Position numbers and translations under genes: made by a program | Assembly (NCBI GenBank): GCA_024278215.1 | Contig: JAJRTR010000194.1 | Span: 1-36,411, forward strand | Direction of reading: 5' to 3' | DNA length: 36,411 nt | Source of the DNA: a bacterium | GTDB lineage: Bacteria > UBP15 > UBA6099 > JAJRTR01 | Shown here: piece by piece, positions 4,060 to 36,411 of the stretch | Layout: the number at the start of each line of letters is the position of its first letter | How positions within the stretch are numbered: position 1 is the stretch's first letter | The notes under the pieces: generated by a model | Seen by the model: the letters and a program-made list of their open reading frames with translations, nothing else | What the model was told of the DNA's origin: nothing | The model's database searches: none

Positions 4060-4141
4060 TTTAATGCGTTATTCGATGCCGGCGCCCCGTGAATAGTTAC
4101 TGTTGTTTGAAATTATCTCCAAAACAAAGCAGTTGCAAATT

Positions 4142-4804: not shown

Positions 4805-4937
4805 AACTTCATTTCTCCGGTTCTACAAATAACTCCCTGGAGCCGCTTGCACTTTCGGAGCGGGGCAGAGTTGATGTGTTTTTGCGACAACTGTTTGTGC
4901 GGACACCGGTTGAGACGAGGTGCCGGTGACAGATAAA

Positions 4938-15662: not shown

Positions 15663-15694
15663 AAAAAACCCGAACCTGAAATTTCAGGCCCGGG
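15663..15694 (-). terminator. Rho-independent terminator of the giant gene
   Basis: Minus strand CCCGGGCCTGA-AATT-TCAGGTTCGGG (11-bp stem with 2 G-U pairs) followed by TTTTTT, ~50 nt past the stop codon. Confidence 0.85.
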
Positions 15695-15741
15695 TTTATA
15701 TGCTTTATATATCGGCGGCGCGTCGCTATGCCGTCGTCGCT

Positions 15742-18700
15742 TTACTTCGTTATTGTCAATACGCAACCTGTGTCTGCGACGTCGATCCAGTACCCGTACC
15801 ATGGAATGATGTATGCGCTGTCGTTCGCTTCGAGTTTCCTGTAGCCGAGCGTGTCACTGTAGTAATAAATCGGCACAAGGGTTTTCGATTGTCCGGAACA
15901 ATCGAGACTCACTTTGCTGTCACCCCAGAATATGCTTTCATTGAACGGGTCCGATATTACATTCCAGCCCTGCTGTAGTGTGATCTGATATGAGTTCCCT
16001 GAATAATCCGTTCCGTGCGCGCTTACCGCACCTATATCCGATTCGGAATATATCCAGAGACCTTCGGCGAAGTCCATATCGACCTTCGTTTCGGAAGTCA
16101 GGAACTCGAAGGTGCCGCCGGTCTGTTTCACAATTTCATAAACGTTCACGCCGAAGACTGTCGCCGGGCTGATGTAGGCGTTCTGCTGAGAGACGCCGAC
16201 GAGCGACCAGCCTTTATTGATGATGAGACCCGAGGCAGTCGGAGTAACAGTCGTGCGCGCGCCGTCGCTGTCGGCTGTCGAATAAACGGAACCGTCATAC
16301 GCGAACGCCGCATAGTAATATGTGTAGCCGTTTGTCAGGCCCGTATCAAGGAACGACTCGCCGGCACCGTCGTATACTTCCGTGCCGTCGACAATGCTCG
16401 AGGGATAGCCGCCGAGTTTCCTGATGATCTTCGTGCTTGTCGCGGCTTCCGGGTCGGTCCACATGAGCTGGGCTTCCGTGTCGCCTGCGAGCGCCGTCAT
16501 AGCAGTGACTTCGTCGAGTGTGCCGAGTTGCACTGTGACGCCGTCGGAGTTCGCTGGAGTCGACTCCATACCCGCGCCGTTTTCAGCTTTCACCGTGAAG
16601 TAGTAAGTCGAGCCGACAGAGAGAGAAAGTCCGGACTTCGTTACAGTCGTGGCGGTTGCGTTATCGGTCCAGGAAACGATGTCCGTGCCGCCCGCTGTCG
16701 TACCGACAGCATAGGAATATTTGACGATGCCGCTTTCGGCGTCGGTCGAGGCGGTCCAGTTGGCGGAAAGTTGTGTCTGTGAAGTCGTCGTGTCGACATC
16801 AGCGCCTGTGCCGTCGTTGACGGAAGCGATTGTCGACGGTGCAGTCGCGTCGATGGTCTGGCCGTCGGATGTTGTGACGTTCGATTGGAGGCCCGCGCCG
16901 TTTTCGGCTTTCACGGAGAAGTAATATGCCTGTCCGCCGGTCAATGACAGTCCGGTTTTCGTGACGCTGGTGTTCGTGCTGTTGTCAGTCCAGCCGACGA
17001 TGTCCGCGCCGCCCGCCGTTGTGCCGATTGCGTACCAGTAGCGGGCGATACCGCTTTCGGTGTCGGTCGACGCGGTCCAGTTGGCGGTTAGTTGCGTGAG
17101 CGATGAAGAGTAATCAATATCCGCGCCCGCGCCATCGTTGACCGTAGCGATATCCGTCGGGTTCGTCGAGTCGCCTCCCGTGACCTGCTGGCCGTCGGAG
17201 TTCGCGGGAGTAGACATCAGGCCGACGCCGTTTTCGGCTTTCACAGAGAAGAAATATGTCGATCCTTCAGTAAGAGAAAGTCCGGTTTTCGTGACGCTGG
17301 TGTCTGTACCGTTATCGGTCCAGCCGACGATGTCGGTGCCGCCCGCCGTTGTGCCTACCGCGTACCAGTAACGGGTGATGCCGCTTTCGGCGTCGGTCGA
17401 GTCGGTCCAGTTGGCGGTGAGCTGGACGAGCGATTGCGTCGTGTCTATGTCCGCGCCCGCGCCGTCGTTGACCGTCGTTATCGCCGAAGGCGCACTCGTG
17501 TCGACCGTATAATCCACATCTTCATTCGTATCGGCAGTATCCGCGCTGCCGCCTGTGTCCGAACACGCAATGTAGACGACTTCACTTCCTTCGGCAAGTG
17601 AATCCGCCGAGCATGTATGGAATGTGACGCCTGTGCCGGAGCAGGTATTCTGGGCGGGCATGTCGCCGTAGGCCTGGTCGCTGAGAGACCACTTGCACGA
17701 CGAGTTTTCGTCGGTATCGAAAGTGATCTCGACGGAAGTGCTTGTAAGCCCCGAACCTTTCGCCGGGTCCCAGTTGCTCTGGACAGGCGGATCGACATCT
17801 ATAGTGTAAGACAGTTCGGTGTTGGTCGAGGCGGAATGCGTATTGCCGATAGTGTCGGTGCAAGCGATATAGACGACATCCGATGTGCCGGTGAGTCCCG
17901 ATACGGAACAGGTATGGCTTGTGCCGCCGCCGCCCGCGCACGCGCCCGCGATGTCCATATCGCCGTAAGCTTCGTCCGCGAGAGACCATCTGCATGTCGC
18001 GTTCTCGTCGGTGTTAAGAGTGATCGTCGGCGATGTTGTCGTAAGAGTTGTTCCGGCTGACGGCGACCAGTTGCTCTGGACCGGCGCGGATACGTCGACC
18101 AGTTGTCCGTCCGAGTTCGCCACATCCGCGACAAGTCCCGCGTTATTCTCGGCTTTAACCGAGAAGTAATACGTCTGTCCGTCGGTGAGTGTCAGTCCGG
18201 TTATTGTAACCGATGTCGTCGCGCTGTTGTCGGTCCAGTCGACTACATCCGTGCCGCCCGCGGTCGTGCCGACAGCATACCAGTATTTCGCGACGCCGCT
18301 CTCGGTGTCGGACGATGCAGTCCAGTTCGCGGACAACTGGGTCGAGTCGCCTGTCGTATCGACATCCGCGCCGGTGCCGTCATTTACCGATGTTATGGTG
18401 GCCGGAGCGGTTGTGTCGATTGTCTGGCCGTCAGAATTTGTCGCGCCCGATTGCAATCCGGCTCCGTTCTGTGCTTTGACGGTGAAGTAATAAGTGTCGC
18501 CGTTCGTAAGACCGAGCCCGGTGCGCGTGACGTAAGTGACGGCGCCGTTATCAGTCCAGTCGACTACATCCGTGCCGCCCGCTGTCGTGCCGACAGCGTA
18601 CCAGTATTTCGCGATGCCGCTCTCGGTGTCCGACGACGCCGTCCAGTTGGCTGAAAGCTGGGAGGTAGAACCTGCCCACGACGCGTCGACACCGGTTCCG

Positions 18701-21700
18701 CTGCCGTCATAGACTGTCGCTATGTCGGACGGTGGAGTCGTATCGTTGAAGTCGGCGGTCGCACCGTAGGAGGTCGTTATATTCGACATCATGCCCGCGC
18801 CGTTCTCCGCCTTTACCGATACGTAATAAGTTACCCCGTCGGTGAGAGCGAGTCCGGTGCGTGTTACGGAAGTTTCTGTGCCGTTGTCGGTCCAGTCGGC
18901 AGTGTCGGTTCCACCTGCTGTCGTTCCGATAGCGTACCAGTAGCGCGCTATGCCGCTCTGCGGGTCGGTCGAAGCGGTCCAGTTCGCCGATATCTCCGTA
19001 CCTGAAGATATGACATTCGAGTCGACGCCGATTGTGCCGCCGTCGTAGACAGTAGCGATGTCGGTGGGCGCGGAAGCGTCGATGAAATAATTGATGTCGT
19101 CGTTTGTCGCAATGGTGTCCTCGTTGCCGAGAAGGTCGGCGCATGAAATATAGACGTAATCGGAGCCCTCGCTCATGCCGCTTACCGCGCAACTCTGGCT
19201 TGTAGTGCCGCCACCCGCGCAGGCGTTACCTGACGACATATCAGTGTATGACTGATCGGTGAGAGACCAGCGGCAATAGGCTTCCTCGTCCGTAGTCAGA
19301 GTTATCGAGGGCGATGTAGTGTATATGTAATCGCCCTTGTCCGGGTTCCACGCGCTCTGAACCGGCGGGCTCGCGTCTATAGTGTAATTTATATCTTCGT
19401 TCGTCGCCGCGCTGTCTTCATTACCGGCGGTGTCGGTGCATGAGATGTAAACGTATTCCGCACCTTCGGACATACCGGTTACCGCGCATGATTGCGATGT
19501 CGTGCCGCCGCCGGTACATTCGTTGCCCGCCGACATCGAACTGTAAGAATCGTCGGAGAGCGACCAGCGGCATGTCGCGTTTTCACTTGTTGTGAACGTA
19601 ATCGTCTGTGATGTGCTCGTGAGATACGAACCCTTCGCCGGGCTCCATCCGCTTTGCGACGGTGGACTCACATCCACGGTCTGGCCGTCGGATGTCGCGA
19701 CTGTGGATTCGACGCCGACGCCGTTCTCCGCCTTGACCGACACATAGTAAGTCTGGCCCGGAATAAGTGTAAGTCCGGAGACACTTACTGTTGTAACGAG
19801 CGCGTTGTTCGTCCAGTCGACGACATCGGTTCCACCGGCGGATGTGCCGACGGCATAATAATAACGGGAAATTCCGCTTTCCGAATCGGACGATGAAGTC
19901 CAGTTGGCCGACAGATCGGTCGTCGACGCGACGTAGTCGATGTCCGAGCCTATGCCGTCGCTTACGGTGACGGTGGACGGCGGTGTGGAGTCGACAGTTG
20001 CGCCGTCGGAGTTTGTCGCGCCGGATTCAAGTCCCATTCCGTTTTCAGCTTTGACAGTGAAGAAATATTGCTGGCCGTGGCTGAGGCTGAGACCTGTCTT
20101 CGTTACGGAAGTGTTTGTGCCGTTGTTTGTCCAGGAAACAACGTCCGTAGCCCCGGCAGTCGTTCCTATCGCGTACCAGTATTTCGCGATTCCGCTTTCG
20201 GGATCGGACGAGCCGGTCCAGTTGGCAGACAGCTGGGTTGTGCTGCCCGTTACGTCGATATCCGAGCCGGTGCCGTCATAAACATCGGCGATGTCGGAGG
20301 GCGGCGTCGAATCCGACAGGTTGACCTGCTGCCCGTCGGAACTGACGACATTCGACAACAGGCCCGCTCCGTTCTCCGCCCTGACGGAGAAATAATATGT
20401 AGTACCGTCGGCGAGCGCGAGCCCTGTGTGTGTGACGGAAGTGTTCGTGCCGTTGTCCGTCCAGTCGACGACATCCGTGCCGCCCGCGCTTGTGCCTATT
20501 GCATACAGATACCTGACAATGCCACTCTCGGCGTCGCTGGAGGCTGTCCAGTTGGCGGAAAGCTGCACGCCGGATGTAGTCGTGTCTATATCGCTTCCCG
20601 TGCCGTCGTTGACAGTCGCGACGTCCGCGGGTGCGGTGTCGTCTACCGTATAGCCGAGGTCTTTATTTGTCGACGTTGTGTTCCCGTTGCCCTGTATGTC
20701 CTCACATGCGATATACACATACTCGGCGCCCGTGCTCATTCCGGTTACGGAACAACTGTGGTTTGTGGACGCCGCACCGGAACATGTGTTTTCGACGGGC
20801 ATCGAACTGTAGCCGTAGTCGGTAAGCGACCATCGACATGTGCTCGCTTCGTTCGTGTTCAGAGTGATGGTCACCGAAGTGTCCGACAGATATGAACCGG
20901 CCGCGGGCGACCAGTTGCTTTGTATCGGATCGCCGGTATCGACCGTGTAAGTAAGTTCCGTATTCGTGATCGAAGTGTCGGCGTTGTTATTTTCATCTAT
21001 GCAGTTCAGATACACTATATTCGCGCCCTCGGAAAGGCTTGTGACGCTGCATGACTGGCTTGTCGTGCCGCTGCCGCCGCAAATATTGCCCGGAGCGATA
21101 CTGCCGTAATCAGCATCCGCGCCCGCAAATTTACACGTCGCGTTTTCATCGGTATCGAAGGTAACCGTCGGGTTTGTCGTGCCGATTACCGAACTGTCGG
21201 CGGGCGACCAGTTACTCTGCACCGGGGGCGATGTGTCGAGCGTCGCGCCGTCGGAGGTCACAGTGCCCGACGTAAGGCCGGCCCCGTTTTCCGCCCTGAC
21301 GGATACATAATAAGTCTGTCCTTCCGTGAGTCCCAGCCCCGTCTCCGTCACAGATGTATTGGTTCCGTTATTCGTCCATGCGACAACGTCCGTTCCGCCC
21401 GCCGTCGTGCCTATCGCGTAGTAGTAAGCGGCGATACCGCTTTCCGCGTCGGACGACGCGCCCCAGTTTGCGGAAATCTGCGATGAATTTGTAATTACGT
21501 CCACATCGCTTCCCGTGCCGTCGTACAAGTAGGAGACATCGGCGGGAATGGTCGTGTCGATTGTCTGGCCGTTGGAACTCGTGGTTCCGGATTCGAGCCC
21601 AACGCCGTTCTGCGCTTTGACGGTGAAGTAATAGGTGTTCCCGTTCGTAAGTACGAGACCGGTTTTTGTAACCGATGTGTTCGCGCCGTTGCCGGTCCAG

Positions 21701-24700: not shown

Positions 24701-25434
24701 GTCTGGCCGTTGGAACTCGTCGTCCCGGACTGGAGCCCTACCCCGTTTTCAGCCTTGACGGTGAAGTAATAGGCCTGGCCGTTCGTAAGTGTCAGCCCTG
24801 TGCTTGTAACGGACGTGACCGCGCTGTTGTCGGTCCAGTCGACGACATCGTTTCCGCCCGCGGTCGTACCGATTGCATACCAGTAGCGCGCCACGCCGCT
24901 TTCCGCGTCGGCGGAATCCGTCCAGTTGGCGGAAAGCTGTGTGGACGAGCCTGTCCATGTTATATCCACACTTACCGTATCGCCGTCATAAACGGTCGCG
25001 ACATCAGATGGCGGTGTCGAATCGGTGAAGTCGGCGGACTGGCCGTCCGAGGTCGTCACATTTGACAACATTCCGGCACCGTTCTCCGCCCTGACCGACA
25101 CGTAATACATTTGTCCGTTCGTGAGCGACAGCCCGGTTTTCGTGACGTAAGTCAAAGCGCCGTTGCTCGTCCAGTCCACGATGTCCGTGCCGCCGATGCT
25201 CGTGCCGATTGCATATTGATAATCCGAAATTCCGCTCTGCGTGTCCGTAGCGGAAGTCCAGTTCGCCGAAAGCTGCGAGCCGGATGCCGTCGTGTCTATA
25301 TCGACGCCGACCGAGTCGCCGTCGTATACGGTGGCGATGTCGGACGGAGCGGAAGTGTCGACTGTATAATCTATATCTTCGTTGGTCGAAGCGGTGTCCT
25401 CGTTAGAGTTGGCGTCGGTGCAGGCGATATACAC
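15742..25434 (-). CDS. Giant repetitive surface/secreted protein, C-terminal segment (3230 aa ORF, in frame with the upstream segment across one TAA)
   Basis: Tandem ~110-aa Fn3/Ig-like A modules (LSANW..SD.ESGI..YWYAIGTT.GG.D..W..YY..VKAENG.GL) and ~99-aa four-Cys B modules, then a distinct Fn3-like domain and a GW[SN]..GYW C-terminal domain. Confidence 0.88.
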   Translation of the reverse strand: MYIACTDANSNEDTASTNEDIDYTVDTSAPSDIATVYDGDSVGVDIDTTASGSQLSANWTSATDTQSGISDYQYAIGTSIGGTDIVDWTSNGALTYVTKTGLSLTNGQMYYVSVRAENGAGMLSNVTTSDGQSADFTDSTPPSDVATVYDGDTVSVDITWTGSSTQLSANWTDSADAESGVARYWYAIGTTAGGNDVVDWTDNSAVTSVTSTGLTLTNGQAYYFTVKAENGVGLQSGTTSSNGQTLDNTAPADVTYVYDGTGADETYIYSYTQISGNYSASSDAESGVAKYWYAIGTTEGGTDVVDWTDNGTNLSFTKTGLSLTDGQTYYISVRAENNAGLTSGIVSSNGATVDLSTPVQSAWNPSDGASLSTTSPSVTFSTDENASCRWSLSDLSYDGMSGNDCSGTGTTSHICSVTGLSEGANMVYTACSDVAGNEDSASTNTELSYTVDTMEPVQSNWLPASGSYLSDTSETIALNTDENATCRWSLTDSAYSSMAPANTCSGGGATGHSCSVTGMSTGAEAVYVACADALGNENSETTNKDLSYIIDNTAPADVASVSDGTGADIDTTTSGTELSANWTASSDAESGVAKYWYAIGTTSGGTDVVDWTDNGTNTSVTKSGLALSDGVTYYVSVKAENGAGLESNAVSSDGQMVELTDSTPPIDITSVYDGTGADIDMTASTTQLSANWTSSSDPESGVARYWYAIGTTPGGTDIVTWTDNVLSTSMTHTGLSLAQNQDYYISVKAENGMGLESSVTTSDGVTVDATAPSAVTVSDGTGVDVDFITSTTSLSANWTASTDAESGITRYLYAIGTTSGGADVVGWTDNGLATSFTKSGMTLTDGTTYYVSVKSENGVNLESDVATSDGQKLDLSTPVQSAWNPAKGATVTSAAMTLTLTTDEAAYCRWSLTDDSYSTMPPANQCSGAGTTSQSCAVEGMNEGAEYVYVACADEAGNEDDATTNENIGYTVDTTAPAQSAWDPAKGAFIYTTSPTITLTTDEAAYCRWELNDNDYSAMPGANVCTGGGTTGHTCSVSGLSEGSDFVYISCVDLNANEETASTNEDINYTIDTSAPADVATVYDGGTTGVDIDTVTSGTQLSANWTASSDPQSGIDAYWYAIGTTSGGTDVRDWTTSGTNAYMTATGLALNDGQAYYVSVKAENGAGMMSGVTTSDGQTADFSDTTAPSDIAIVYDGADIGIDMTWAGSASQLSANWSASSDAESGIAAYYFAIGTTAGATDVVDWTGNGANTSVTKTGLVLTNGNTYYFTVKAQNGVGLESGTTSSNGQTIDTTIPADVSYLYDGTGSDVDVITNSSQISANWGASSDAESGIAAYYYAIGTTAGGTDVVAWTNNGTNTSVTETGLGLTEGQTYYVSVRAENGAGLTSGTVTSDGATLDTSPPVQSNWSPADSSVIGTTNPTVTFDTDENATCKFAGADADYGSIAPGNICGGSGTTSQSCSVTSLSEGANIVYLNCIDENNNADTSITNTELTYTVDTGDPIQSNWSPAAGSYLSDTSVTITLNTNEASTCRWSLTDYGYSSMPVENTCSGAASTNHSCSVTGMSTGAEYVYIACEDIQGNGNTTSTNKDLGYTVDDTAPADVATVNDGTGSDIDTTTSGVQLSANWTASSDAESGIVRYLYAIGTSAGGTDVVDWTDNGTNTSVTHTGLALADGTTYYFSVRAENGAGLLSNVVSSDGQQVNLSDSTPPSDIADVYDGTGSDIDVTGSTTQLSANWTGSSDPESGIAKYWYAIGTTAGATDVVSWTNNGTNTSVTKTGLSLSHGQQYFFTVKAENGMGLESGATNSDGATVDSTPPSTVTVSDGIGSDIDYVASTTDLSANWTSSSDSESGISRYYYAVGTSAGGTDVVDWTNNALVTTVSVSGLTLIPGQTYYVSVKAENGVGVESTVATSDGQTVDVSPPSQSGWSPAKGSYLTSTSQTITFTTSENATCRWSLSDDSYSSMSAGNECTGGGTTSQSCAVTGMSEGAEYVYISCTDTAGNEDSAATNEDINYTIDASPPVQSAWNPDKGDYIYTTSPSITLTTDEEAYCRWSLTDQSYTDMSSGNACAGGGTTSQSCAVSGMSEGSDYVYISCADLLGNEDTIATNDDINYFIDASAPTDIATVYDGGTIGVDSNVISSGTEISANWTASTDPQSGIARYWYAIGTTAGGTDTADWTDNGTETSVTRTGLALTDGVTYYVSVKAENGAGMMSNITTSYGATADFNDTTPPSDIATVYDGSGTGVDASWAGSTSQLSANWTASSDTESGIAKYWYAVGTTAGGTDVVDWTDNGAVTYVTRTGLGLTNGDTYYFTVKAQNGAGLQSGATNSDGQTIDTTAPATITSVNDGTGADVDTTGDSTQLSANWTASSDTESGVAKYWYAVGTTAGGTDVVDWTDNSATTSVTITGLTLTDGQTYYFSVKAENNAGLVADVANSDGQLVDVSAPVQSNWSPSAGTTLTTTSPTITLNTDENATCRWSLADEAYGDMDIAGACAGGGGTSHTCSVSGLTGTSDVVYIACTDTIGNTHSASTNTELSYTIDVDPPVQSNWDPAKGSGLTSTSVEITFDTDENSSCKWSLSDQAYGDMPAQNTCSGTGVTFHTCSADSLAEGSEVVYIACSDTGGSADTADTNEDVDYTVDTSAPSAITTVNDGAGADIDTTQSLVQLTANWTDSTDAESGITRYWYAVGTTAGGTDIVGWTDNGTDTSVTKTGLSLTEGSTYFFSVKAENGVGLMSTPANSDGQQVTGGDSTNPTDIATVNDGAGADIDYSSSLTQLTANWTASTDTESGIARYWYAIGTTAGGADIVGWTDNSTNTSVTKTGLSLTGGQAYYFSVKAENGAGLQSNVTTSDGQTIDATAPSTIASVNDGTGADVDTTTSQTQLSANWTASTDAESGIVKYSYAVGTTAGGTDIVSWTDNATATTVTKSGLSLSVGSTYYFTVKAENGAGMESTPANSDGVTVQLGTLDEVTAMTALAGDTEAQLMWTDPEAATSTKIIRKLGGYPSSIVDGTEVYDGAGESFLDTGLTNGYTYYYAAFAYDGSVYSTADSDGARTTVTPTASGLIINKGWSLVGVSQQNAYISPATVFGVNVYEIVKQTGGTFEFLTSETKVDMDFAEGLWIYSESDIGAVSAHGTDYSGNSYQITLQQGWNVISDPFNESIFWGDSKVSLDCSGQSKTLVPIYYYSDTLGYRKLEANDSAYIIPWYGYWIDVADTGCVLTITK

Positions 25435-25437
25435 ATA

Positions 25438-28400
25438 TTAGGCACCTTCGATAAGCCCGGAGACTGCGCAACTCTGGCTCGTCGTGCCGCCGCCTGAGCA
25501 AGCGTTCGATCCTGACATTCCGGAGTAAGCGTCGTCGGTGAGCGACCAGCGGCAATACGCGGCTTCGTCGGTCGTCAGTGTTATAGTCGGCGATGTCGTG
25601 TCGACATACGCGCTCTTTGCCGGGTTCCACGCGCTCTGCGCGGGCGGCAGTGTGTCGATCGTATAATCAATGTCTTCATTTGTCGATGAATCGTCGGAGT
25701 TGCCCGCCTCGTCCATGCAGGCGACATATACATATTCCACGCCTTCAGATAGTCCGGTGACATCGCACGACAGTGAAGTAGTTCCACCGCCCGAGCACTG
25801 ATTCGCGCCGGACATCGAGCTGTACGAGATGTCCGACTGCGACCAGCGGCAATACGCGGCTTCGTCGGTCGTCAATGTAATAGTCGGCGATGTAGTTGTG
25901 AGCGTCGAGCCTTTTGCCGGGCCCCACGCGCTCTGCACAGGCGTTGTGAGGTCGAGCTTCTGGCCGTCGGATGTGGCGACTGCCGATTCGACCCCCACAC
26001 CGTTCTCGGACTTCACAGAGACGTAATATGTCGTGCCGTCGACAAGTGTCAGCCCGGAATTCGTGACTGTCTGCGACGTGCCGTTTCCCGTCCAGTCGAC
26101 TATGTCGGTACCTCCGGAAGTTGTTCCGACAGCGTAATAATATGCGATGACACCGCTTTCGGCGTCTGTCGATGCCGTCCAGTTGGCGGAGATAGTCGTC
26201 GCGGAAGTAATGAAATCGACATCCGCGCCCGTGCCGTCACTCACGGTTACCGCGGACGGCGCGGTGGCGTCGACCACAACACCGTCCGACGTTGTCGTGT
26301 TCGACTGGAGTCCCATACCATTTTCCGCCTTGACCGTGAAGTAATACGTCACTCCATGTGAAAGGGGCAGACTGCCGCGCGTCACGGATGTGTTGGTGCC
26401 GTTGTCGGTCCAGCCCGCGAGTTCGCCGCCGCCCGGCGTGGTTCCTATCTGATACCAGTATTTCGCCACGCCGCTTTCGGCGTCGGACGAAGCGGTCCAG
26501 TTGGCGGACAACTCCGTAGTCGATCCCGTAACATCGATATCGGTGCCAGTGCCGTCATATACACTTGTTATGTCCGAAGGCGGAGTCAGGTCCGACAGGT
26601 CGACAGTCTGGCCGTCCGAACTGTTGGCCGAACCGATCAGCCCCGCGTTGTTTTCCGCCTTGACCGCTACATAATAAAGTTGCCCGTCGGACAGCGCGAG
26701 CCCTGTTTTTGTGAAGGAAAGATTTGTTCCGTTGTCTGTCCAGTCGACTATTTCGTTGCCGCCGGCGGATGTGCCGATTGCGTACCAGTACTTCGCGACG
26801 CCGGTTTCCGGATCGGACGCCGCCGTCCAGTTGGCGGACATCTGTGTAGCCGATGTCGTTATGTCGATATCCGCGCCCGTGCCGTCGTTTATAGTGGCAA
26901 CCATAGTCGGCGGTGTTATGTCTACGATATATGAAAGTTCCGAATTTGTCGTGTCCGAGTTTTCATTATCGACCGGGTCCGCACACGCGATATAAACATT
27001 CTGTGTGCCGGTGCTGAATCCGTTTGTGAAGCACGAATGGCTCGTGGACAAAGAACCCGAGCAGGTGTTGCCGGAGAACATCGAGCTGTACGCGAGGTCG
27101 GACAGCGACCATCGGCATGTCGCGATTTCATCGGTGTTCAGATCAATAGTTGCCGAAGTGCCTGTAATGTACGAACCGTCCGACGGGTTCCAGTTGCTCT
27201 GCACCGGCTCCTGTGTGTCAACAGTGTAGTCGAGTTCGGTATTCGACGCCGCAGAATCCTCATTCCCCGCGACATCTGCGCACGCGACATACACTACCTG
27301 CGCACCTTCGACAAGTCCGGTTACGGAACATGTATGGGCTGTCGACTGCGATACATCGCAGGTGTTGCCGCCCGGCATCAGGTCGTAGGAAGTATCGGTC
27401 AGTGCCCAGCGGCACGAGGCGTTTTCATTTGTGGTGAATGTGACAGTCGGCGTGGACGTCGCTATAGTGTCGCCGTCCGCCGGGTCCCAGCCGCTCTGCA
27501 CAGGCAGCGAAGCGTCCACACGCTGTCCGTTCGAGCTTACAGGCGTGGATTCGAGTCCCGCGCCGTTCTCGGCCTTAACTGTCACATAATATATCTGGCC
27601 GTCCACCAGCGTGAGCCCGGAGCGCGTCACGGAAGTATTCGTGCCGTTATCCGTCCAGCCCGCGATACCCGTCCCGCCTGCCGTTATGCCGATGGCATAC
27701 ATGTATCTCACGATTCCGCTGCCGGGGTCCGACGAGGCCGTCCAGTTCGCGGAAAGCTGTGTGAGCGAAGTGGAGTAATCGACATCCGCGCCGGTACCGT
27801 CGTTGACAGTCGCAATATCGAGCGGCGGGCTGGTATCCACAAGCACACCGTCGGATGTCGCCACCGATGATTCGAGCCCGACACCGTTCTGCGCTTTTAT
27901 CGACACATAATAAGTCTGGCCGTCGATGAGAGTGAGCGCTGTTCTGGTGAGGTTCGTGCTGATTCCGTTACTCGTCCAGTCCACGATGTCCGTGCCGCCA
28001 GCAGTCGTGCCGACAGCGTAATAATAGGCGGCGATTCCACTTTCAGGATCGGAAGACGCCGTCCAGTTGGCGGAAAGCTGCGAGCCGAGCCCCCACAGGT
28101 CGACATCCGCGCCGGTGCCATCGTTTACAGTTGCGATGTCGGCGGGAGGCGTGGAGTCCGCGAAGTCCGTCTGCTGGCCGTCCGAACTCACGGGATTTGA
28201 CTCCAACCCCGCCCCGTTTTCCGCTTTGACCGTGAAGTAATAAGTAGTAGCGTCCGAAAGTGAGAGCCCCGTTCTGGTGACATTCACGCCGGTTCCGTTA
28301 TCCGTCCAGTCCACGATGTCCGTACCGCCCGCCGTCGTGCCTATCGCGTACCAGTAGGCGGTTATCCCGCTGCCGGTGTCGCTCGAGGCCGTCCAGTTCG

Positions 28401-31400
28401 CGGAAAGCGTGGTGCCCGATGTAACTGTATCTATATCGACATGGTATGTGCTGCCGTCGTAAACAGTCGCCACATCCGACGGGGCGGTCGTGTCGATCGT
28501 ATATGATATATCCTCGTTGGTGGACGCCGTGTCTTCGTTTGCCGCTGTGTCGATGCAGGCGACATAGACATAATCAGCGCCTTCGCTCAATCCCGTCACA
28601 GCGCACGACTGTGTTCCTGTTCCCGCGCCCGAGCATTCGTTGCCCGCCGACATACTGCTGTATGCGTCATCTGTGAGCGACCAGCGGCAGGTGGCGTTTT
28701 CATCCGTTGTGAACGTGAGTGTAGTCGAACTCGTGGCGAGGAAAGAATCTTTCGCCGGGTTCCAGTTGCTCTGTACCGGCGGCAGTGTGTCCACCGTGTA
28801 ATTCAATTCCGTGTTGGATGCCGCCGAGTCGTAGTTGCCTGCTTCGTCGTTGCAGGCGAGATATACATATCCACTGCCCTGCGAAAGTCCCGACACCGCA
28901 CAGGACTGACTGGTTGTGCCGCCGCCCGTACATATATTGCCGCCGGGCATGGATGTGTACGCGACATCGCTGAGCGACCAGCGGCAGGTGGCCGCCTCGC
29001 CGGTTGTGAATGTCAATGTTGCCGATGTGTCGGTGAGCGTCGAGCCGTCCGCCGGGTTCCACGCGCTCTGCACGGGTGTCGATATGTCCAGCGTCTGGCC
29101 GTCCGAACTCGCGGGCGTCGACAGGAGACCGGCCTCGTTCTCGGCAGTTACGCAGAAGTAATATGTCGTTCCGTCAGTAAGTGTCAGGCCTGTCGCCGTT
29201 ACGCTCAGTGAAGCGCCGATGTCCGTAAGGCCCACGACTTCCGTGCCGCATGATGTGGTGCCGATAGAATACCAGTAGCCCGCTATGCCGCTCTCAGAGT
29301 CCGAGGAAGCGGTCCAGTTCGCGGACAGTTGGCTCGTGTCTGTTGTATAAGTGATGTCCGCGCCGGTTCCGTCGCTTACAGTGACCGCGGCGGGGGCGCT
29401 GCTGTCGATTGTCACACCGTCGGAATCCGCGGGATTGGACTCGAGCCCCATCCCGTTTTCGGCCTTGACCGTGAAGTAATACGTCTGCCCGTCAGTCAGC
29501 GACAGGCCGGTTTGGGTGACGGAAGTATTCGCGCTGTTGTCGGTCCATGCGACGACATCCGTGCCTCCCGCCGTTGTGCCGACGGCATACCAGTATTTCG
29601 AGACGCCGCTTTCGGGATCGGATGAAGCCGTCCAGTTTGCCGACAGTTGTGTTGTCGAACCGTCGAAGTCGATGTCCGAGCCCGTACCGTCGTTCACCGT
29701 TGCAATGTCCGACGGCGGCGTGCTGTCCGTGAAGTCCGCAACCTGGCCGTCGGAACTTGTCGTGAATGAAACAAGGCCCGCGCCGTTCTCGGCTTTCACA
29801 GTGAAGTAATATGTTTCGTCGTCCGTGAGCGCGAGTCCCGATCTCGTGACGGAAGTGCTCGGGCCGTTGTCCGTCCAGTCGACGAGGTCGTTTCCGCCCG
29901 CCGTTGTTCCTATCGAATACCAGTACCTTGTTATGCCTGTTTCGGCATCGGCGGAGGCTGTCCAGTTCGCTGAAAGTTCGGTACCCGATGTTGTCGTATC
30001 GATATCCGCGCCCGTGCCGTCGTTCACGGTTGTAATGGTATCGGGCGGCGTTGTATCTATCGTATAATCAATATCTTCATTTGTTGCGGAAGTATCTTCA
30101 TTGGACATAATGTCCGTGCACGAAATATAGACATATTCAATTCCCTGCTGTAGTCCTGAAGTCGAACACGAATGGCTTGTCGTGCCGCCTCCGGTACAGT
30201 TGTTGGACGATGAAATGGAACTGTAGCCGAGGTCTGTAAGCGACCATCGGCAATAGCCTGTTTCGTCGGTTGTGAATGTTATAGTCGGCGAATCAGTGCC
30301 CACGATACTTGATTTGGCGGGCGACCACGCGCTCTGCACGGGTGGACTGTAATCGACCGAATAGCTAAGTTCCGAATTCGTCGACACCGTGTCGCCGTTG
30401 CCCGCGGTGTCCTCGCAAGCGATATAGACGATTTCAGTGCCTTCGCTCATGCCCGCGACAGAACACGACTGGCCGTAAGTTCCCGCGCCCGAGCATGTCG
30501 CTCCGGAGGACATCGCGCTGTACGACTGATCCGAAAGCGACCACCTGCATGTCGCGTTTTCGTCCGTTCCGAATGTTATGTCGGTGGCGGAACTCGTGAT
30601 CGTCGAACCCGGCGACGGGCTCCAGTTGCTCTGCACAGGCGTCGAAAGATCGACGGTATAATTTATGTTTTCATTCGTTGCGTCCGAGTCCTCGTTGCCA
30701 AGCGAGTCCACACACGCGATGTATACATATTCCGAACCTTCGATGAGGCCGGTGGGATAGCACGTCTGTGAAGTCGAGTCGATACCGTCGCAGGTCTTAA
30801 GCGATGGAATGGAGGCATACGCGCCGTCGGTGAGCGACCATCTGCATGTCGCGTTTTCATCGGTCGTGAAAGTGATGGAAGGCGCGGTCGTATTGATGCT
30901 GCTGCCTTTGGCGGGCGACCATCCGCTCTGCTCCGGCGGCGATATATCGACAGTCTGGCCGTCGGACACGACAGGCGTCGATTCGAGCCCGGCGTTGTTC
31001 ACAGCCTTTATGCTGAAGTAATAAGTCGCACCGCCGCCAAGTGAGAGTCCGGAATGTGTGACGGAAGTGTTCGTGCCGTTGTACGTCCAGTTTACAATAT
31101 TCGTCGAGCCCGGTGATGAACCGACGGCATAATAATAGCCTTCGACATCGCTTTCGGCATCGATCGAGGCTGTCCAGTTGGCCGAAAGAGTGGTGAGCGA
31201 GTTAGTGGAATCTATGTCCGCGCCGGTACCATCGTTCACCGTTGCGACATCGTCGGGCGGCGTATTGTCTATCGTCTGGCCGTCCGAACTCACGGCAGTC
31301 GATTTCAGTGCCGCGCCGTTCTGTGCCTTTACGCTGACGTAATATGTCTGTCCGTTTGTAAGTGAGAGTCCATATATAGTGTCTGAAGTCACCGGCCCGT

Positions 31401-34400
31401 TGGTGCTCTGCCATGTCACGACATCCGTCGCGCCCGCGGTGGTGCCGATAGCCATCCAGTATGTGGATATCCCGCTTTCCGGGTCGGATGCTGCATCCCA
31501 GTTCGCCGACAATGTTGTCGTCGAGCCGGAATAGACGGCATCCGCGACCAGCCCGTCATAAACGTACGTTACGGGCGACGGTTCGGTCGAATCCGTGAAA
31601 TCGGCCATCTGGCCGTCGGAACTCACTTCGCCCGACTCGAGGCCTGCCCCGTTTTCCGCCTTCACAGTGAAGTAATACATCTGATCGTCGACAAGTGAAA
31701 GCCCCGTATGCGTGACCGACGTATTCGCGCCGTTGTCGGTCCAGCCGACGACATCGACGCCGCCCGCCGTTGTGCCGATAGCGTACCAGTATTTCGCTAT
31801 TCCGCTTTCGGCGTCGGTGGAAGCCGTCCAGTTGGCCGAAAGGATCGTCCCGAGCGCCGTAACGTCAATGTCCGCGCCTGTGCCGTCGTTTACTGCGGCC
31901 ACATCCGCGGGGGCTGTCGTATCTATCGTGTAATTTATTTCAGTGTTGTCCGCCGCGATATGGCTGTTGGCGAACATGTCGGTGCAGGCGATGTACACGA
32001 CTTCGGCACCGGTCGTCAGACCGCTCGCCGAGCATATATGAGATTTCGTGCCGCCGCCCGCGCATGTGTTCGCTCCCGGCATCGTATCGTAATCGTCGTC
32101 GGTGAGCGACCACCTGCATATCGCGTCCTCATCCGTGTTCAGGTCGATAGTCGGCGATGTATTCGGCAGGTACGAACCATCCGCCGGGTCCCAACTGCTC
32201 TGCACCGGCGGTGTCGTGTCCAGCGTGTAGGCGATGCTCTCGTTGGTGGACGCGGTGTCTTCATTGCCGTAGTCGTCCGTACACGCGGTATATATCGTGT
32301 TCGCGCCTTCTGCAAGTCCGGTCACGGAACAACTGTGGTTGGTTGTTGACGTGCCGCAACTGTTTCCGCCCGGCATGGCCGAGTAAGCCTGGTCTGTGTC
32401 CGACCACCTGCATGTCGCGGATTCGTCTGTATCGAAAGCGACAGTCGGCGTCGCGGTATTAACGGTGGAATCCTTCGCGGGGTTCCAGTTGCTCTGAACC
32501 GGAGCCGTCGTGTCGACAGTGTAGTCGAGGTCGGAATTCGTCGAAACAGAATCGGCGTTGTCCGCCATATCGACACAGGAAATGTACACGATTTCCGGAC
32601 CTTCGGACAGGCCGGTTGTCGAACAGGTATGCGAGGTTGTGCCGCTGCCCGCACACTCATAGGTTATCGGAATAGAATAATAGGGCAGGTCGGAGAGCGC
32701 CCAGCGGCACGTGGCGTTTTCGTCGGTATTGAAGGAGATGGCCTGCGAAGTCGATGTAAGCACAGTGCCGGTCGCAGGGCTCCAGCCGCTCTGTGACGGC
32801 AGGGTCGTGTCGAAGGTCTGGCCGTCGGAAGTCGTCACGCCCGATTGCACGCCCGCATAGTTCTCGGATTTCGCCGACACGTAATACGTCTGAGCTTCGA
32901 CAAGTGTAAGCCCGGTTCTGGTCACACCTTCGGAGAAGCCGACGTCCGTCCAGTCCACCACATCCGTAGCGCCCGCGGAAGTGCCGATCGCATACCAGTA
33001 GCGAAAAAGCCCGCTTTCATTATCGACGGCGGCGTCCCAGTTCGCCGCCAGCCTGTCGGAATCCGTCGTGAAATCTATATCCAGGCCGTTACCGTCCCTG
33101 ACTTCGGCGAGGTCGCCGGGTGGTGTGATGTCGACAGTCTGCCCGTCGGAACTTGTCGCCGCCGACTCGAGTCCCGCGCCGTTCTCCGCCTTAATGCTGA
33201 TGTAATATGTCTGCGTGTCGGTCAGGGAGAGTCCCGTCATCGTAGCAGTTGTCGACGTCGCGTTATTCGTCCAGTCGACAACGTCTGTAGCCCCCGCCGT
33301 CGTTCCGGCCGCGTACCAGTACGCGGTTATGCCGCTTTCCGGGTCCGATGAAGTGCTCCACGTGGCGGACAATTGTGATGCCGAGCCGACAAAGTCGATA
33401 TCCGAGCCTGTGCTTCCGTCATAAACAGATGATATTCCGGACGGTGGCGTCGTGTCGATGAAGTCCGTGGTCTGGCCGTCGGAGGTCGTAACATTCGACA
33501 TAAGCCCCGCGCCGTTTTCAGCTTTGACGGACACATAATAGGTGGTGCTGTCCGACAGGGAGAGCCCGGTAGCCGTCACAGTCGTTGCCGTCGCATTGTC
33601 GGTGTATGTCCTGATATTCGTGCCGCCCGGCGTCGTGCCGATGGCATACCAGTAGCTCACGATCCCGCTTTCCGCGTCGGCGGAAGCCGTCCAGTTGGCG
33701 GAAAGCTGTACGCCCGAAGTCGCGGTGTCTATATCCACACCGATGCCTTCGCCGTCATATACGGTTGCTATGTCCGACGGCGGGGTGGTGTCGACAGTAT
33801 AAGTAAGCTCGGAATTCGAAGCGGCATCGTCCGCGTTGGACAATGTGTCCTCGCAAGCGAAGTAAACAACCTGCGTACCGCCTGAAAGTCCCGACAGTGA
33901 ACAGGAATGATATGTGCTGCTGTCACCCGAACAACTGCCCGCCATCGAGGCGTAATCCTGGTCGGTGAGCGACCATTTGCAGGAAGCGATTTCGTCGGTG
34001 TCGAAAGTGATCGTCGGCGACGTGCTCGAAACATAAGTGCCGGACGCCGGGTCCCAGTTGCTCTGCACCGGCGGGGTGCTGTCGACATTGTAGAACAGAT
34101 CGGTGTTGCCGGACGCGGAGTCCTCATTCGCATAGAGATCGACACAAGCGATATAAACATAATCCAGTCCTTCGGACAGACCGCTTACGGCGCAACTCTG
34201 GCTGGTGGAAAGAGCGCCCGAACATTCGTTGCCCGCGCCCATTGTCGTGTAATCCGTATCACTCAGAGACCACCTGCAAGTCGCCGCTTCATTCGTTGTA
34301 AATGTTATAGTCGGCGAATTCGTGCCCACTGTCTGGGATGTCGCGGGGTACCAGCCGCTCTGCACCGGCGGCGTCGTGTCCACAACATAGTAGAGCGCAG

Positions 34401-36411
34401 TATTTGTGAGGGAAGTGTCCGAATTGGACTGCATATCCTCGCAGGCGACAAATATATATTCGCCGCCCTCGTCGAGCCCGTCCGCATCGCACGAATGGCT
34501 TGTGGTTCCCGTTCCCGAGCATTCATTCCCGACAGCCATATCGTCATACCCGAGATCGGTGAGCGCCCATCTGCATGTCGCGTTTTCGTCCGTATTAAAA
34601 GTTATTGTCTGTGATGTCGTTGCGAAAACGGTTCCCGTCGCCGGGCTCCAGTTGCTCTGCACCGGCAGAGTGGTGTCTATTGTGTAGCCGAGTTCGGAAT
34701 TGGTCGTGTTCGTGTCCTCATTGCCCTGAAGATCGGAGCAGGAAATATATAATGTGACAGAACCTTCGCTCAGACCGCTGACGTTGCATGTGAGGCTGGT
34801 GGTGCCGCCGCCGCCGCACGTGCGCACGGACGTAATGTCGCTGTAACCATCGTCGGTCGTCGACCACCTGCATGTCGCGTTTTCGTCGGTATCGAATGTA
34901 ATCGCTACAGAAGGCGAAGTCAGCGACGCGCCGTCCGCCGGGTTCCAGTTGCTCTGCACCGGCGTCGACAGGTCGACGATGTACGTCACCGCTTCATTCG
35001 TCGCGGATGTATGCTCATTGCCGTCACCGTCCGTACACGCGAAGTATACAGTCTGCGTCGCCGCGCCGAGTCCCGTCACCGAACAGCTTTGCAACTTTGT
35101 CGCCGCGCCGGAACATTCATTGAGCGCCGGCATCGCGCTGTAGCCGTTGTCGTTCTGCTCCCACCTGCATGTCGCGTTCTCGCCGGTAACGAATGTGACG
35201 GTCGGCGACGCGGTCGCAATGGATGTTCCGTCCGCCGGTGCAATGCTGGAAATCACAGGCGGCAGGGTGTCTATACTGTAAGTAAGACCCGTGTTTGTAT
35301 CCGCCGAATCCTCGTTGCCGGAAGTATCGGCACATGCGAGATAAACAGTTACAACACCTTCGGAAAGCCCCGCGGTCTGGCAACTCTGGCTCGTCGTGCC
35401 CGCGCCCGAACATTCGCTGCCCGCTCCCATAGTCGTATAATCGGTATCGCTCAGCGACCACCTGCACGTTGCGTTTTCGTCGGTAGTGAAAGTTATCGCC
35501 GGTGTCGAGGTCGCGAGATTCGAGCCGTTGACCGGGCTCCAGCCGCTCTGTGCCGGAGGCGATACATCCACGAGCACGCCGTCCGAACTCTGCGGAGTCG
35601 ACTGCGCCCCGACACCGTTCTCCGCTTTGACGGTTATGTAATACATGTGACCGTCGCCGAGTGACAGTCCTGAGATCGTTACCGTTCTCGAAACGCCGTT
35701 ATCCGTCCATCCCACAAGGTCCGTCGCTCCGAGCGTCAGCCCGGCGGCATACCAGTACTTCGCTATCCCCGTTTCAGTATCTGACGAAGTCGTCCAGTTC
35801 GCGGACAGCGCGGAATCGCTGGTAATGACGTCGATGTCCGCGCCCGTGCCGTCTGCAACAGAGACATCCGACGGCGGTGTCGCGTCGACCGTCTGGCCGT
35901 TGGAACTGGTAGCGTTGGACATAAGCCACACGCCGTTCTGGGCCTTGACGGAGAAATAATATGTCTGGCCATCGACAAGTGAGAGTCCGGTCTTCGTGAC
36001 GGAAGTCGCCACGCCCACATTCGTCCAATCGACGACATCGGTTGCACCGGCGGTAGTTCCGATTACATACCAGTACCTGTATATTCCACTTTCCAGGTCG
36101 GATGAAGTCGCCCAGTTGGCCGACAACTCGGAAGTCGAGGCCGTATAAGAAACATCGGAACTGAGGCCGTCGTATACCCACGAAATATCTGAAGGCGGAG
36201 TGCTGTCGTCGAAGTTCGCCATCTGGCCATCGGACGACACCGGAGTGGATTCGAGCCCCGCGCCGTTTTCGGCCTTTACGGAGAAATAATATACCTGGTC
36301 GTCGATAAGCGACAAACCAGTGCGGGTGACGGATGTCGATGTGGCATTATCAGTCCAATCGACAATGTCGACGCTGCCGGCGGATGTGCCGATAGCATAC
36401 CAGTATTTCGC
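25438..36411 (-). CDS. Giant repetitive surface/secreted protein, upstream segment (5'-truncated by the window; frame open to 36411)
   Basis: Same A/B modules. The frame reads AKYWYAIGTSAGSVDIVDW from the window edge and ends at the in-frame TAA 25438-25440 in the middle of a B module. Confidence 0.88.
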   Translation of the reverse strand, partial: AKYWYAIGTSAGSVDIVDWTDNATSTSVTRTGLSLIDDQVYYFSVKAENGAGLESTPVSSDGQMANFDDSTPPSDISWVYDGLSSDVSYTASTSELSANWATSSDLESGIYRYWYVIGTTAGATDVVDWTNVGVATSVTKTGLSLVDGQTYYFSVKAQNGVWLMSNATSSNGQTVDATPPSDVSVADGTGADIDVITSDSALSANWTTSSDTETGIAKYWYAAGLTLGATDLVGWTDNGVSRTVTISGLSLGDGHMYYITVKAENGVGAQSTPQSSDGVLVDVSPPAQSGWSPVNGSNLATSTPAITFTTDENATCRWSLSDTDYTTMGAGSECSGAGTTSQSCQTAGLSEGVVTVYLACADTSGNEDSADTNTGLTYSIDTLPPVISSIAPADGTSIATASPTVTFVTGENATCRWEQNDNGYSAMPALNECSGAATKLQSCSVTGLGAATQTVYFACTDGDGNEHTSATNEAVTYIVDLSTPVQSNWNPADGASLTSPSVAITFDTDENATCRWSTTDDGYSDITSVRTCGGGGTTSLTCNVSGLSEGSVTLYISCSDLQGNEDTNTTNSELGYTIDTTLPVQSNWSPATGTVFATTSQTITFNTDENATCRWALTDLGYDDMAVGNECSGTGTTSHSCDADGLDEGGEYIFVACEDMQSNSDTSLTNTALYYVVDTTPPVQSGWYPATSQTVGTNSPTITFTTNEAATCRWSLSDTDYTTMGAGNECSGALSTSQSCAVSGLSEGLDYVYIACVDLYANEDSASGNTDLFYNVDSTPPVQSNWDPASGTYVSSTSPTITFDTDEIASCKWSLTDQDYASMAGSCSGDSSTYHSCSLSGLSGGTQVVYFACEDTLSNADDAASNSELTYTVDTTPPSDIATVYDGEGIGVDIDTATSGVQLSANWTASADAESGIVSYWYAIGTTPGGTNIRTYTDNATATTVTATGLSLSDSTTYYVSVKAENGAGLMSNVTTSDGQTTDFIDTTPPSGISSVYDGSTGSDIDFVGSASQLSATWSTSSDPESGITAYWYAAGTTAGATDVVDWTNNATSTTATMTGLSLTDTQTYYISIKAENGAGLESAATSSDGQTVDITPPGDLAEVRDGNGLDIDFTTDSDRLAANWDAAVDNESGLFRYWYAIGTSAGATDVVDWTDVGFSEGVTRTGLTLVEAQTYYVSAKSENYAGVQSGVTTSDGQTFDTTLPSQSGWSPATGTVLTSTSQAISFNTDENATCRWALSDLPYYSIPITYECAGSGTTSHTCSTTGLSEGPEIVYISCVDMADNADSVSTNSDLDYTVDTTAPVQSNWNPAKDSTVNTATPTVAFDTDESATCRWSDTDQAYSAMPGGNSCGTSTTNHSCSVTGLAEGANTIYTACTDDYGNEDTASTNESIAYTLDTTPPVQSSWDPADGSYLPNTSPTIDLNTDEDAICRWSLTDDDYDTMPGANTCAGGGTKSHICSASGLTTGAEVVYIACTDMFANSHIAADNTEINYTIDTTAPADVAAVNDGTGADIDVTALGTILSANWTASTDAESGIAKYWYAIGTTAGGVDVVGWTDNGANTSVTHTGLSLVDDQMYYFTVKAENGAGLESGEVSSDGQMADFTDSTEPSPVTYVYDGLVADAVYSGSTTTLSANWDAASDPESGISTYWMAIGTTAGATDVVTWQSTNGPVTSDTIYGLSLTNGQTYYVSVKAQNGAALKSTAVSSDGQTIDNTPPDDVATVNDGTGADIDSTNSLTTLSANWTASIDAESDVEGYYYAVGSSPGSTNIVNWTYNGTNTSVTHSGLSLGGGATYYFSIKAVNNAGLESTPVVSDGQTVDISPPEQSGWSPAKGSSINTTAPSITFTTDENATCRWSLTDGAYASIPSLKTCDGIDSTSQTCYPTGLIEGSEYVYIACVDSLGNEDSDATNENINYTVDLSTPVQSNWSPSPGSTITSSATDITFGTDENATCRWSLSDQSYSAMSSGATCSGAGTYGQSCSVAGMSEGTEIVYIACEDTAGNGDTVSTNSELSYSVDYSPPVQSAWSPAKSSIVGTDSPTITFTTDETGYCRWSLTDLGYSSISSSNNCTGGGTTSHSCSTSGLQQGIEYVYISCTDIMSNEDTSATNEDIDYTIDTTPPDTITTVNDGTGADIDTTTSGTELSANWTASADAETGITRYWYSIGTTAGGNDLVDWTDNGPSTSVTRSGLALTDDETYYFTVKAENGAGLVSFTTSSDGQVADFTDSTPPSDIATVNDGTGSDIDFDGSTTQLSANWTASSDPESGVSKYWYAVGTTAGGTDVVAWTDNSANTSVTQTGLSLTDGQTYYFTVKAENGMGLESNPADSDGVTIDSSAPAAVTVSDGTGADITYTTDTSQLSANWTASSDSESGIAGYWYSIGTTSCGTEVVGLTDIGASLSVTATGLTLTDGTTYYFCVTAENEAGLLSTPASSDGQTLDISTPVQSAWNPADGSTLTDTSATLTFTTGEAATCRWSLSDVAYTSMPGGNICTGGGTTSQSCAVSGLSQGSGYVYLACNDEAGNYDSAASNTELNYTVDTLPPVQSNWNPAKDSFLATSSTTLTFTTDENATCRWSLTDDAYSSMSAGNECSGAGTGTQSCAVTGLSEGADYVYVACIDTAANEDTASTNEDISYTIDTTAPSDVATVYDGSTYHVDIDTVTSGTTLSANWTASSDTGSGITAYWYAIGTTAGGTDIVDWTDNGTGVNVTRTGLSLSDATTYYFTVKAENGAGLESNPVSSDGQQTDFADSTPPADIATVNDGTGADVDLWGLGSQLSANWTASSDPESGIAAYYYAVGTTAGGTDIVDWTSNGISTNLTRTALTLIDGQTYYVSIKAQNGVGLESSVATSDGVLVDTSPPLDIATVNDGTGADVDYSTSLTQLSANWTASSDPGSGIVRYMYAIGITAGGTGIAGWTDNGTNTSVTRSGLTLVDGQIYYVTVKAENGAGLESTPVSSNGQRVDASLPVQSGWDPADGDTIATSTPTVTFTTNENASCRWALTDTSYDLMPGGNTCDVSQSTAHTCSVTGLVEGAQVVYVACADVAGNEDSAASNTELDYTVDTQEPVQSNWNPSDGSYITGTSATIDLNTDEIATCRWSLSDLAYSSMFSGNTCSGSLSTSHSCFTNGFSTGTQNVYIACADPVDNENSDTTNSELSYIVDITPPTMVATINDGTGADIDITTSATQMSANWTAASDPETGVAKYWYAIGTSAGGNEIVDWTDNGTNLSFTKTGLALSDGQLYYVAVKAENNAGLIGSANSSDGQTVDLSDLTPPSDITSVYDGTGTDIDVTGSTTELSANWTASSDAESGVAKYWYQIGTTPGGGELAGWTDNGTNTSVTRGSLPLSHGVTYYFTVKAENGMGLQSNTTTSDGVVVDATAPSAVTVSDGTGADVDFITSATTISANWTASTDAESGVIAYYYAVGTTSGGTDIVDWTGNGTSQTVTNSGLTLVDGTTYYVSVKSENGVGVESAVATSDGQKLDLTTPVQSAWGPAKGSTLTTTSPTITLTTDEAAYCRWSQSDISYSSMSGANQCSGGGTTSLSCDVTGLSEGVEYVYVACMDEAGNSDDSSTNEDIDYTIDTLPPAQSAWNPAKSAYVDTTSPTITLTTDEAAYCRWSLTDDAYSGMSGSNACSGGGTTSQSCAVSGLIEGA

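Follow-up and report, generated by a model that had tools for sequence, protein, structure and literature searches.

A 20.7 kb gene fragment from a UBP15 bacterium for a putative giant, acidic cell-surface stalk of alternating Fn3 and Ig-like domains, possibly freshly broken by an in-frame stop codon

The window that we analyze here is an entire contig of 36,411 nucleotides (nt; JAJRTR010000194.1, assembly GCA_024278215.1) from a bacterium of the UBP15 lineage, the source genome comprising 4.55 Mb in 207 contigs with a G+C content of 51%. More than half of the window, 15742-36411 on the minus strand, forms the 3' part (20.7 kb) of a gene whose product is probably a giant, Sec-exported and acidic stalk or fibre of the cell surface; the gene may have been freshly broken. 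The product, known here from its sequence, consists of two alternating modules, denoted A and B, that are fibronectin type III (Fn3) and immunoglobulin (Ig)-like domains respectively, and it closes with an end domain (T domain) that is found in many other large proteins of the same genome. An earlier note on this DNA had proposed a very long extracellular filament, adhesin or sheath protein with Asp-rich segments, and a long, acidic and exported protein of repeats, of the adhesin or stalk type, is indeed the best reading.

The reading frame comprises 6889 codons and a terminal stop, with its 5' side leaving the contig at position 36411. It contains one in-frame TAA (25438-25440, minus strand) at residue 3658, which falls within the eighteenth B module (residues 3582-3680) in an alignment column that is occupied by E, D, Q or N in most of the other copies. 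Apart from this codon there is neither a stop nor a frameshift in the 3657 codons upstream or in the 3231 codons downstream. Translation table 11 yields two open reading frames (ORFs), 25438-36411 (3657 amino acids (aa), open at the 5' end) and 15742-25434 (3230 aa), the latter with a GTG start at 25434 that lies one codon past the TAA, and the public gene call (P0002) presents the 3230-aa piece as a separate protein. TAA terminates 735 of the 2502 stop-to-stop frames of at least 300 aa in the genome; it is an ordinary stop in this organism and recoding is therefore not indicated. The single edge-open frame of 20.67 kb that had been described earlier does run off the contig, but it is interrupted by the TAA.

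In order to parse the frame we have used hidden Markov models (HMMs) built from the sequence's own copies, which identify 36 A modules (~110 aa), the first of them partial (profile positions 47-110), and 28 B modules (~99 aa). They follow each other in the order A3-B6-A3-B3-A3-B3-(A3-B2)x8-A3, after which comes a C-terminal part of 263 aa. Both the counts and the order agree exactly with those of the earlier note, whose module lengths, four invariant B cysteines and description of a composition rich in Thr, Ser, Asp and Gly and low in Lys and Arg hold as well. Expressed in percent, the protein contains T 15.5, S 12.8, G 10.2, A 9.8, D 8.8, K 1.2 and R 0.9, and 843 acidic residues (D+E) are found versus 145 basic ones (K+R).

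The module copies are old. Protein identities average 61% between A modules (maximum 78%) and 53% between B modules (maximum 73%). At the DNA level the A3B2 units share 60-70% identity, and no exact direct repeat in the gene is longer than 45 nt. Within (A3-B2)x8, 17 of 24 A modules (3.1 expected) and 13 of 16 B modules (3.2 expected) are most similar to the module that has their own position in another unit of equal parity, and for this reason we take the evolving unit, as judged from the sequence relationships, to be a ten-module block, A3B2A3B2, of ~1047 aa that is present in four copies. Repeated duplication of this block explains the strict A3-B2 order, and no separate rule of module grammar is needed. 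The coordinates of these and other features are collected in Table 1.

Table 1. Features of the window, further end-domain copies in the genome and architectures of paralogous proteins. Positions refer to the window unless preceded by a contig handle.
Feature	Positions	Strand	Content and basis
Upstream part of giant frame	25441..36411	-	3657 codons, open at contig edge; A3 (first partial)-B6-A3-B3-A3-B3-A3-B2-A3-B2-A3-B1 and most of the next B; translation, own HMMs
Irregular N-proximal array	30070..36411	-	A3-B6-A3-B3-A3-B3, residues 1-2114; HMM parse
Regular array	17515..30069	-	(A3-B2)x8, residues 2115-6299; four ten-module super-repeats of ~1047 aa each
In-frame TAA	25438..25440	-	B module 18; translation, B alignment
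Downstream part of giant frame	15742..25437	-	3231 codons and terminal stop (15742-15744); gene-caller start GTG 25434; end of B, (A3-B2)x5-A3, Fn3-like linker, end domain
Last A triplet	16534..17514	-	Pfam fn3, 40.2 bits (cut-off 25), 3 stretches
Linker domain	16243..16533	-	~97 aa; Fn3-like by eye and by an Atlas lead; no Pfam match
End domain (T domain)	15745..16242	-	~165-166 aa; all-beta; GW.L..P and GYW motifs
Terminator-like hairpin	15666..15697	-	14-pair stem and T run, 45 nt 3' of the stop codon
Other end-domain copies	C54:1015-1536, C151:65535-66053 (ORF of 3842 aa), C118:3647-4123
Paralogue C34 (complete)			signal peptide - Peptidase_M6 - A7 B6 A3 B3 A4 - end domain
Paralogue C43			FG-GAP x19 - A5 - end domain
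Paralogue C118			signal peptide - end domain - prodomain + subtilase - PKD - A B2 A2 B3 A - NHL propeller
Paralogue C1			copy of the C118 type, 5'-cut
Paralogue C107			signal peptide - A12 B A B2 A3, cut at contig end

Module A is, by its sequence matches, an ordinary Fn3 domain. A triplet of A scores above the curated cut-off of Pfam fn3 (PF00041) in three stretches, and a profile of 35 A copies matches titin and neogenin Fn3 chains in the PDB, with titin domains at the top (best E 9.2e-9). Four acidic positions, D5, D17, D22 and D41, are invariant and would be compatible with cation binding, such as the Ca2+ binding that the earlier note had considered possible for A. Lone A-like modules of 50-59% identity are present in proteins of other phyla (a single-protein scan, 16 loci), an example being a Crocinitomix amidase-CUB-PKD protein that has one A-like module together with a Por_Secre_tail for type IX secretion, and on the strength of these occurrences A is a common spacer domain. 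Profile-profile comparison of A with B gives no homology past a shared D-x-T/S-P-P linker (probability 1.6%).

Module B is predicted to be an Ig-like sandwich. Its AlphaFold model has a predicted local distance difference test (pLDDT) score of 94.7 and a predicted template modelling (pTM) score of 0.84, and the best PDB folds for this model are sandwiches of a generic Ig-like kind, comprising the Ig-like domains of gingipain and PPAD, the C-terminal domain of SorT, SiiE (2yn3), PKD, CopC and Bap. The Foldseek match to SiiE 2yn3 has TMq 0.50 and E 0.17, and no fold match of B has an E below 0.08. At the level of sequence, a pair of B modules matches no Pfam family at cut-off, and B has neither an NCBIfam match nor a sequence relative in the PDB. 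A profile of 27 B copies, searched against 1.84 billion cluster representatives, finds 4767 of them at E<=1e-3, 1128 at 1e-10 and 186 at 1e-30, and among the matches listed the relatives range from 178 to 6399 aa and display many architectures. One metagenomic protein of 5994 aa (P0001) carries ~30 consecutive B modules and no A; B arrays can therefore form giant proteins alone.

A scan of 10 B relatives against Pfam places this family with respect to Big_13 (PF19077), which sections of one source describe as the bacterial Ig domain of the SiiE type, with 2yn3 as example structure (PMC9704523). Two of the relatives give strong Big_13 matches, P0014 with a B envelope of 908-999 and a best Big_13 stretch of 925-1005 and P0055 with 744-833 and 757-839, and P0006, a close four-cysteine relative with nine copies, reaches 22.4 bits against a cut-off of 27. 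From these overlaps B would represent a branch, with four cysteines, of a very large family in which the members with two cysteines coincide with Big_13. The earlier suggestion that B might be an unnamed domain family is borne out in that no Pfam or NCBIfam model and no PDB relative was found, but the family is a large one (the 4767 representatives above) and it is linked to Big_13 through intermediates. By the same token the window protein differs less from Ig/Fn3 rods of the SiiE type than had been stated.

The distribution of the cysteines is informative in this regard. Patterns at the cysteine columns were counted over 677 B domains of 148 foreign proteins, giving C..C in 350 domains, CCCC in 280, none in 20 and mixed patterns in 27. 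Because C..C and CCCC predominate, this co-occurrence argues for two pairs, a core pair C39-C83 and an optional pair C57-C67, and each B of the window is probably locked by two disulfides. The cysteine-rich stretch (model positions ~38-83) also produces sub-threshold matches to Pfam FGF-BP1 in 20 of 27 B copies, and P0006 sums to 87.9 bits on this model. Kinship of B with FGF-BP1 was considered and rejected, as all matches in the window lie below the cut-off, and the resemblance is probably a coincidence of cysteine spacing; it could nevertheless mislabel B proteins (the pair at 17515-18108, minus strand, for example) in automatic annotation.

The motif GW.L..P ... GYW occurs twice within the end domain, for which the predicted model is all-beta with a pLDDT of 92.7 and a pTM of 0.87. 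Counting matches above 90 bits, as an iterated HMM drifted to weak partial matches in A modules, we find 24 full-length copies in 18 ORFs of the genome. The domain is terminal in 15 of these ORFs, 3-8 residues from the stop, with 6 of the 15 having a second copy ~340-355 residues from the C-terminus, and in the other 3 it comes immediately after an N-terminal signal peptide. No Pfam family describes it (0 relevant matches among 21 members), there is no PDB fold match (best E 6e-3, TMq at most 0.28), and word-based searches for homologues return either nothing or matches that cover at most 42% of the query. Its HMM does match the ends of A/B proteins in four related genomes as well as in two contigs of metagenome-assembled genomes. 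Judged from sequence and position, the end domain is a candidate for a lineage-specific module that docks proteins to the envelope.

Two further observations concern genes with this domain. Small end-domain proteins of 321-718 aa on contigs C47 (1-1878), C39, C144 and C194 are each preceded by a large protein of short repeats of the GD.MTG type, the sole neighbour family that recurs beside end-domain genes (4 contigs). On contig C20 (10524-16001, plus strand) an ORF of 1826 aa with an N-terminal end domain and no A or B leaves the 3' end of the contig and is another unfinished giant gene.

Elsewhere in the genome the modules form part of a family. A is matched in 11 ORFs and B in 8, each number including the two pieces of the window, and of the genomes searched, each of the 12 that belong to the same family or order gives A/B matches, versus 1 of 28 unrelated genomes. 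Three of the paralogues (C34, C107 and C118) start with a sequence that resembles a signal peptide. Relatives from the same order have the architecture Peptidase_M6 - beta helix - A7 B2 A4 - end domain, or A21 followed by two end domains. In every paralogue and relative the A/B array is flanked by a functional part on one side and by the end domain on the other, with the orientation reversed in C118, and it is on this account that we take the array for a stalk, with the end domain serving as its anchor near the cell. The paralogues and relatives (C34, C43, C118; L043, L044, L045, L047) share the A, B and end-domain modules of the window protein, but they have 5 to 23 modules and carry Peptidase_M6, subtilase, FG-GAP or NHL heads, whereas at least 64 modules are present in the window protein, whose head, if it has one, is unassembled. 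As far as sequence comparison can tell, the window protein stands in its architecture at one end of the range covered by its paralogous family in this genome and order.

A mechanism can be outlined on this basis. The protein would be exported by the Sec route, as suggested by the signal peptides of the paralogues, and would string together 66 or more domains of the beta-sandwich type, made up of 36 Fn3 (A), 28 Ig-like (B) and one further Fn3-like domain with the all-beta end domain last. An Ig or Fn3 domain spans ~4 nm, and with this value we estimate that an extended chain of ~66 sandwiches would be ~250 nm long. The two disulfides would stabilize B both mechanically and against proteolysis, the very acidic surface would bind cations and the end domain would probably fix the chain to the cell envelope. 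By analogy with the paralogues, the N-terminal part that is missing from the assembly might be held a few hundred nm from the cell; alternatively, the protein itself might be a sticky, cation-binding fibre, with adhesion, spacing or matrix formation as its function. Given the one nonsense codon, the population that was sampled may carry a gene in a freshly inactivated or truncated state.

A number of points weigh against this picture. The N-terminus, and thus the gene's own signal peptide and any head, lies off the contig, and the signal peptides were judged by eye, in paralogues. Anchoring is argued from the position of the end domain, which has no known fold. The link of the window's B modules to Big_13 is transitive in that it passes through intermediate sequences; none of 27 single B copies from the window matches Big_13 at E<=10, let alone at the curated cut-off. 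Among the 12 ORFs scanned on the 3' side there are no genes for secretion or anchoring, the 5' side being off the contig, and no partner gene recurs beside members of the A/B family. Finally, the in-frame TAA means that the full-length protein may not be made. The lone public sequencing run found (X1; 0.09 of sampled words) gives a 222-nt contig that corresponds to 25682-25903 and differs from the window at 3 positions (mapping at 85% likeness), and nothing from this run maps over 25438-25440. A search of metagenome contigs for the stop region, with a wildcard at the first base of the stop, produced no exact match, and the closest unit outside the genome is 47% identical, leaving no nearer orthologue for comparison at the stop.

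There is close to an even chance that the nonsense codon is real and the gene freshly broken, in which case a released rather than anchored N-terminal fragment of at least 3657 aa, lacking the end domain, would be all that is produced, and the remaining 3230 codons would be either silent or translated by re-initiation at the GTG at 25434, without a signal peptide. The TAA is, after all, present in the assembled sequence, TAA is a normal stop in this genome and the public gene call is split at it; moreover, an AAGGTG lies 8 nt before the GTG, so that re-initiation is mechanically possible, although this hexamer is simply the conserved E-G codon pair of the B modules. No second stop or frameshift has accumulated, so any inactivation would have to be very recent, and in a metagenome bin the same picture would result from an error in the consensus or from an allele of the minority; no reads are mapped over the TAA site. 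Much less probable, and in our view very unlikely, is the explanation of the whole array as an assembly artefact in which repeats from several paralogues were collapsed or joined into a chimera. Short-read bins often break in such genes, this contig does end inside the array, and contig ends likewise truncate two further genes of the family. Yet with exact internal repeats of 45 nt or less, and with the degree of divergence between units and between modules noted above, collapse of repeats is unlikely, and the frame is kept across 20.7 kb with a single stop.

Other readings concern what an intact protein would do. In A-band titin the pattern of a fixed domain order with position-specific similarity is read, in sections of two papers, as mirroring how the thick filament repeats along its length (PMC10665226, PMC7427331), and the same fixed Fn3/Ig-like order and position-specific similarity across the four super-repeats would be in keeping with a functional super-repeat, a ruler or scaffold whose period matches that of a partner (a surface lattice, for example, or a sheath, or bundles of the protein itself). 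We consider this unlikely, since plain block duplication predicts position-specific similarity equally well, the N-proximal third is irregular (B6, B3, B3), paralogues and relatives have other counts (A7B2A4, A21, A5) and no periodic partner is known. At a similarly low level, and slightly less likely still, is a bolder combination in which the protein would be a bacterial counterpart of titin that spaces a periodic extracellular structure and the end domain, at either terminus, would dock at least 18 large secreted proteins in a lineage-wide system of display; the ten-domain super-repeat of ~1047 aa would then correspond to about 40 nm, an estimate at ~4 nm per domain. The giant size, the tandem Ig-like domains, the acidity and the Big_13-like module might also bring to mind an RTX giant adhesin of the LapA/SiiE type, secreted by a type I system, or a cargo of type IX secretion. 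This is very improbable, as no Pfam family matches the C-terminal 263 aa at E<=10, so that this part is without RTX repeats or a Por_Secre_tail, none of the 12 flanking genes scanned encodes an ATP-binding cassette (ABC) transporter, membrane fusion protein (MFP) or TolC, and the complete paralogues start with signal peptides of the Sec type. An anchored, Sec-exported stalk or fibre, with its gene possibly broken, remains the reading that we prefer.

With respect to the missing 5' end, no exact overlap of at least 15 nt exists between the contig ends of C107, C1, the window or any other contig, and the last 51 nt of the window have no exact match in metagenome contigs. C107 is the sole family gene that is cut at its 3' end, the window and C1 both being 5'-cut, and 13 of the 18 modules of C107 are closest to modules of the window; as the window holds most of the modules, this leaves the pairing of C107 with the window or with C1 undecided. 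Were the protein to begin with C107, it would be longer than 9000 residues and lack an enzymatic head.

Nine of the 12 ORFs scanned on the 3' side belong to Pfam families, housekeeping ones among them, that are unrelated to secretion (rhomboid, acyl-CoA synthetase, Tex, adenylate cyclase, acyl-CoA dehydrogenase, M48 peptidase, double thioredoxin-like, ferredoxin-domain and DUF169), one is matched as an IS1634 transposase and two are unmatched. The transposase (5526-6743, minus strand; NCBIfam 117 bits, cut-off 100) adjoins the two ORFs without a family match (2860-4059 and 4103-4936), in a stretch of reduced G+C content (0.42 at 2001-4000); this may be an inserted island. The double thioredoxin-like gene (12857-13939, plus strand) encodes a protein of 360 aa with two AhpC-TSA/Redoxin domains and lies beside the M48 peptidase gene, 1.8 kb from the end of the cysteine-rich giant gene; apart from this proximity nothing speaks for a link with disulfide handling.

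Comparison with characterized systems suggests that the protein is unusual in size and regularity and not in kind, and that it works like the stalk of a fibrillar adhesin. Fibrillar and giant adhesins with Big_13 stalks (SiiE of Salmonella, 2yn3, and the LapA type) are likewise monomeric, very acidic chains of tandem Ig-like domains. The window protein differs from these in having no RTX or type I secretion signal and no type I secretion genes nearby, with Sec signal peptides in its paralogues, as well as in its two alternating domain classes, the two cysteine pairs of B and another end domain. In A-band titin, according to sections of PMC10665226, Ig and Fn3 domains follow a fixed order that arose by recursive duplication of super-repeats, with equivalent positions most alike. 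The window protein shares the fixed order of Fn3 and Ig-like domains and the greatest similarity at equivalent super-repeat positions, but the analogy is one of architecture, for here we deal with an exported bacterial protein, a super-repeat of A3B2A3B2 and no known periodic partner. Periscope proteins are also rods of tandem folded domains that project a distal part, yet their defining feature, in the sections of PMC9704523 that list Big_13 among the stalk domains, is a very high DNA identity between repeats, and the units of the window are too diverged for this (60-70% identity, longest exact repeat 45 nt). No description of the architecture was found in the literature on UBP15, Big_13/PF19077 or giant genes, which was covered mostly at the level of abstracts.

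Two large and confidently folded domain families that lie beyond curated libraries, the four-cysteine B module and the end domain of ~165 aa, are brought together in this locus, where the public gene calls are split by a stop codon that is seen in the assembly only. The (A3-B2)x8 array provides a clean bacterial case of evolution by super-repeats, otherwise best known from titin, and the end domain is common to many giant secreted proteins of an uncultured lineage. If it is true that the end domain is an envelope anchor, then it would define the way in which proteases, propellers and fibres are displayed in this lineage.

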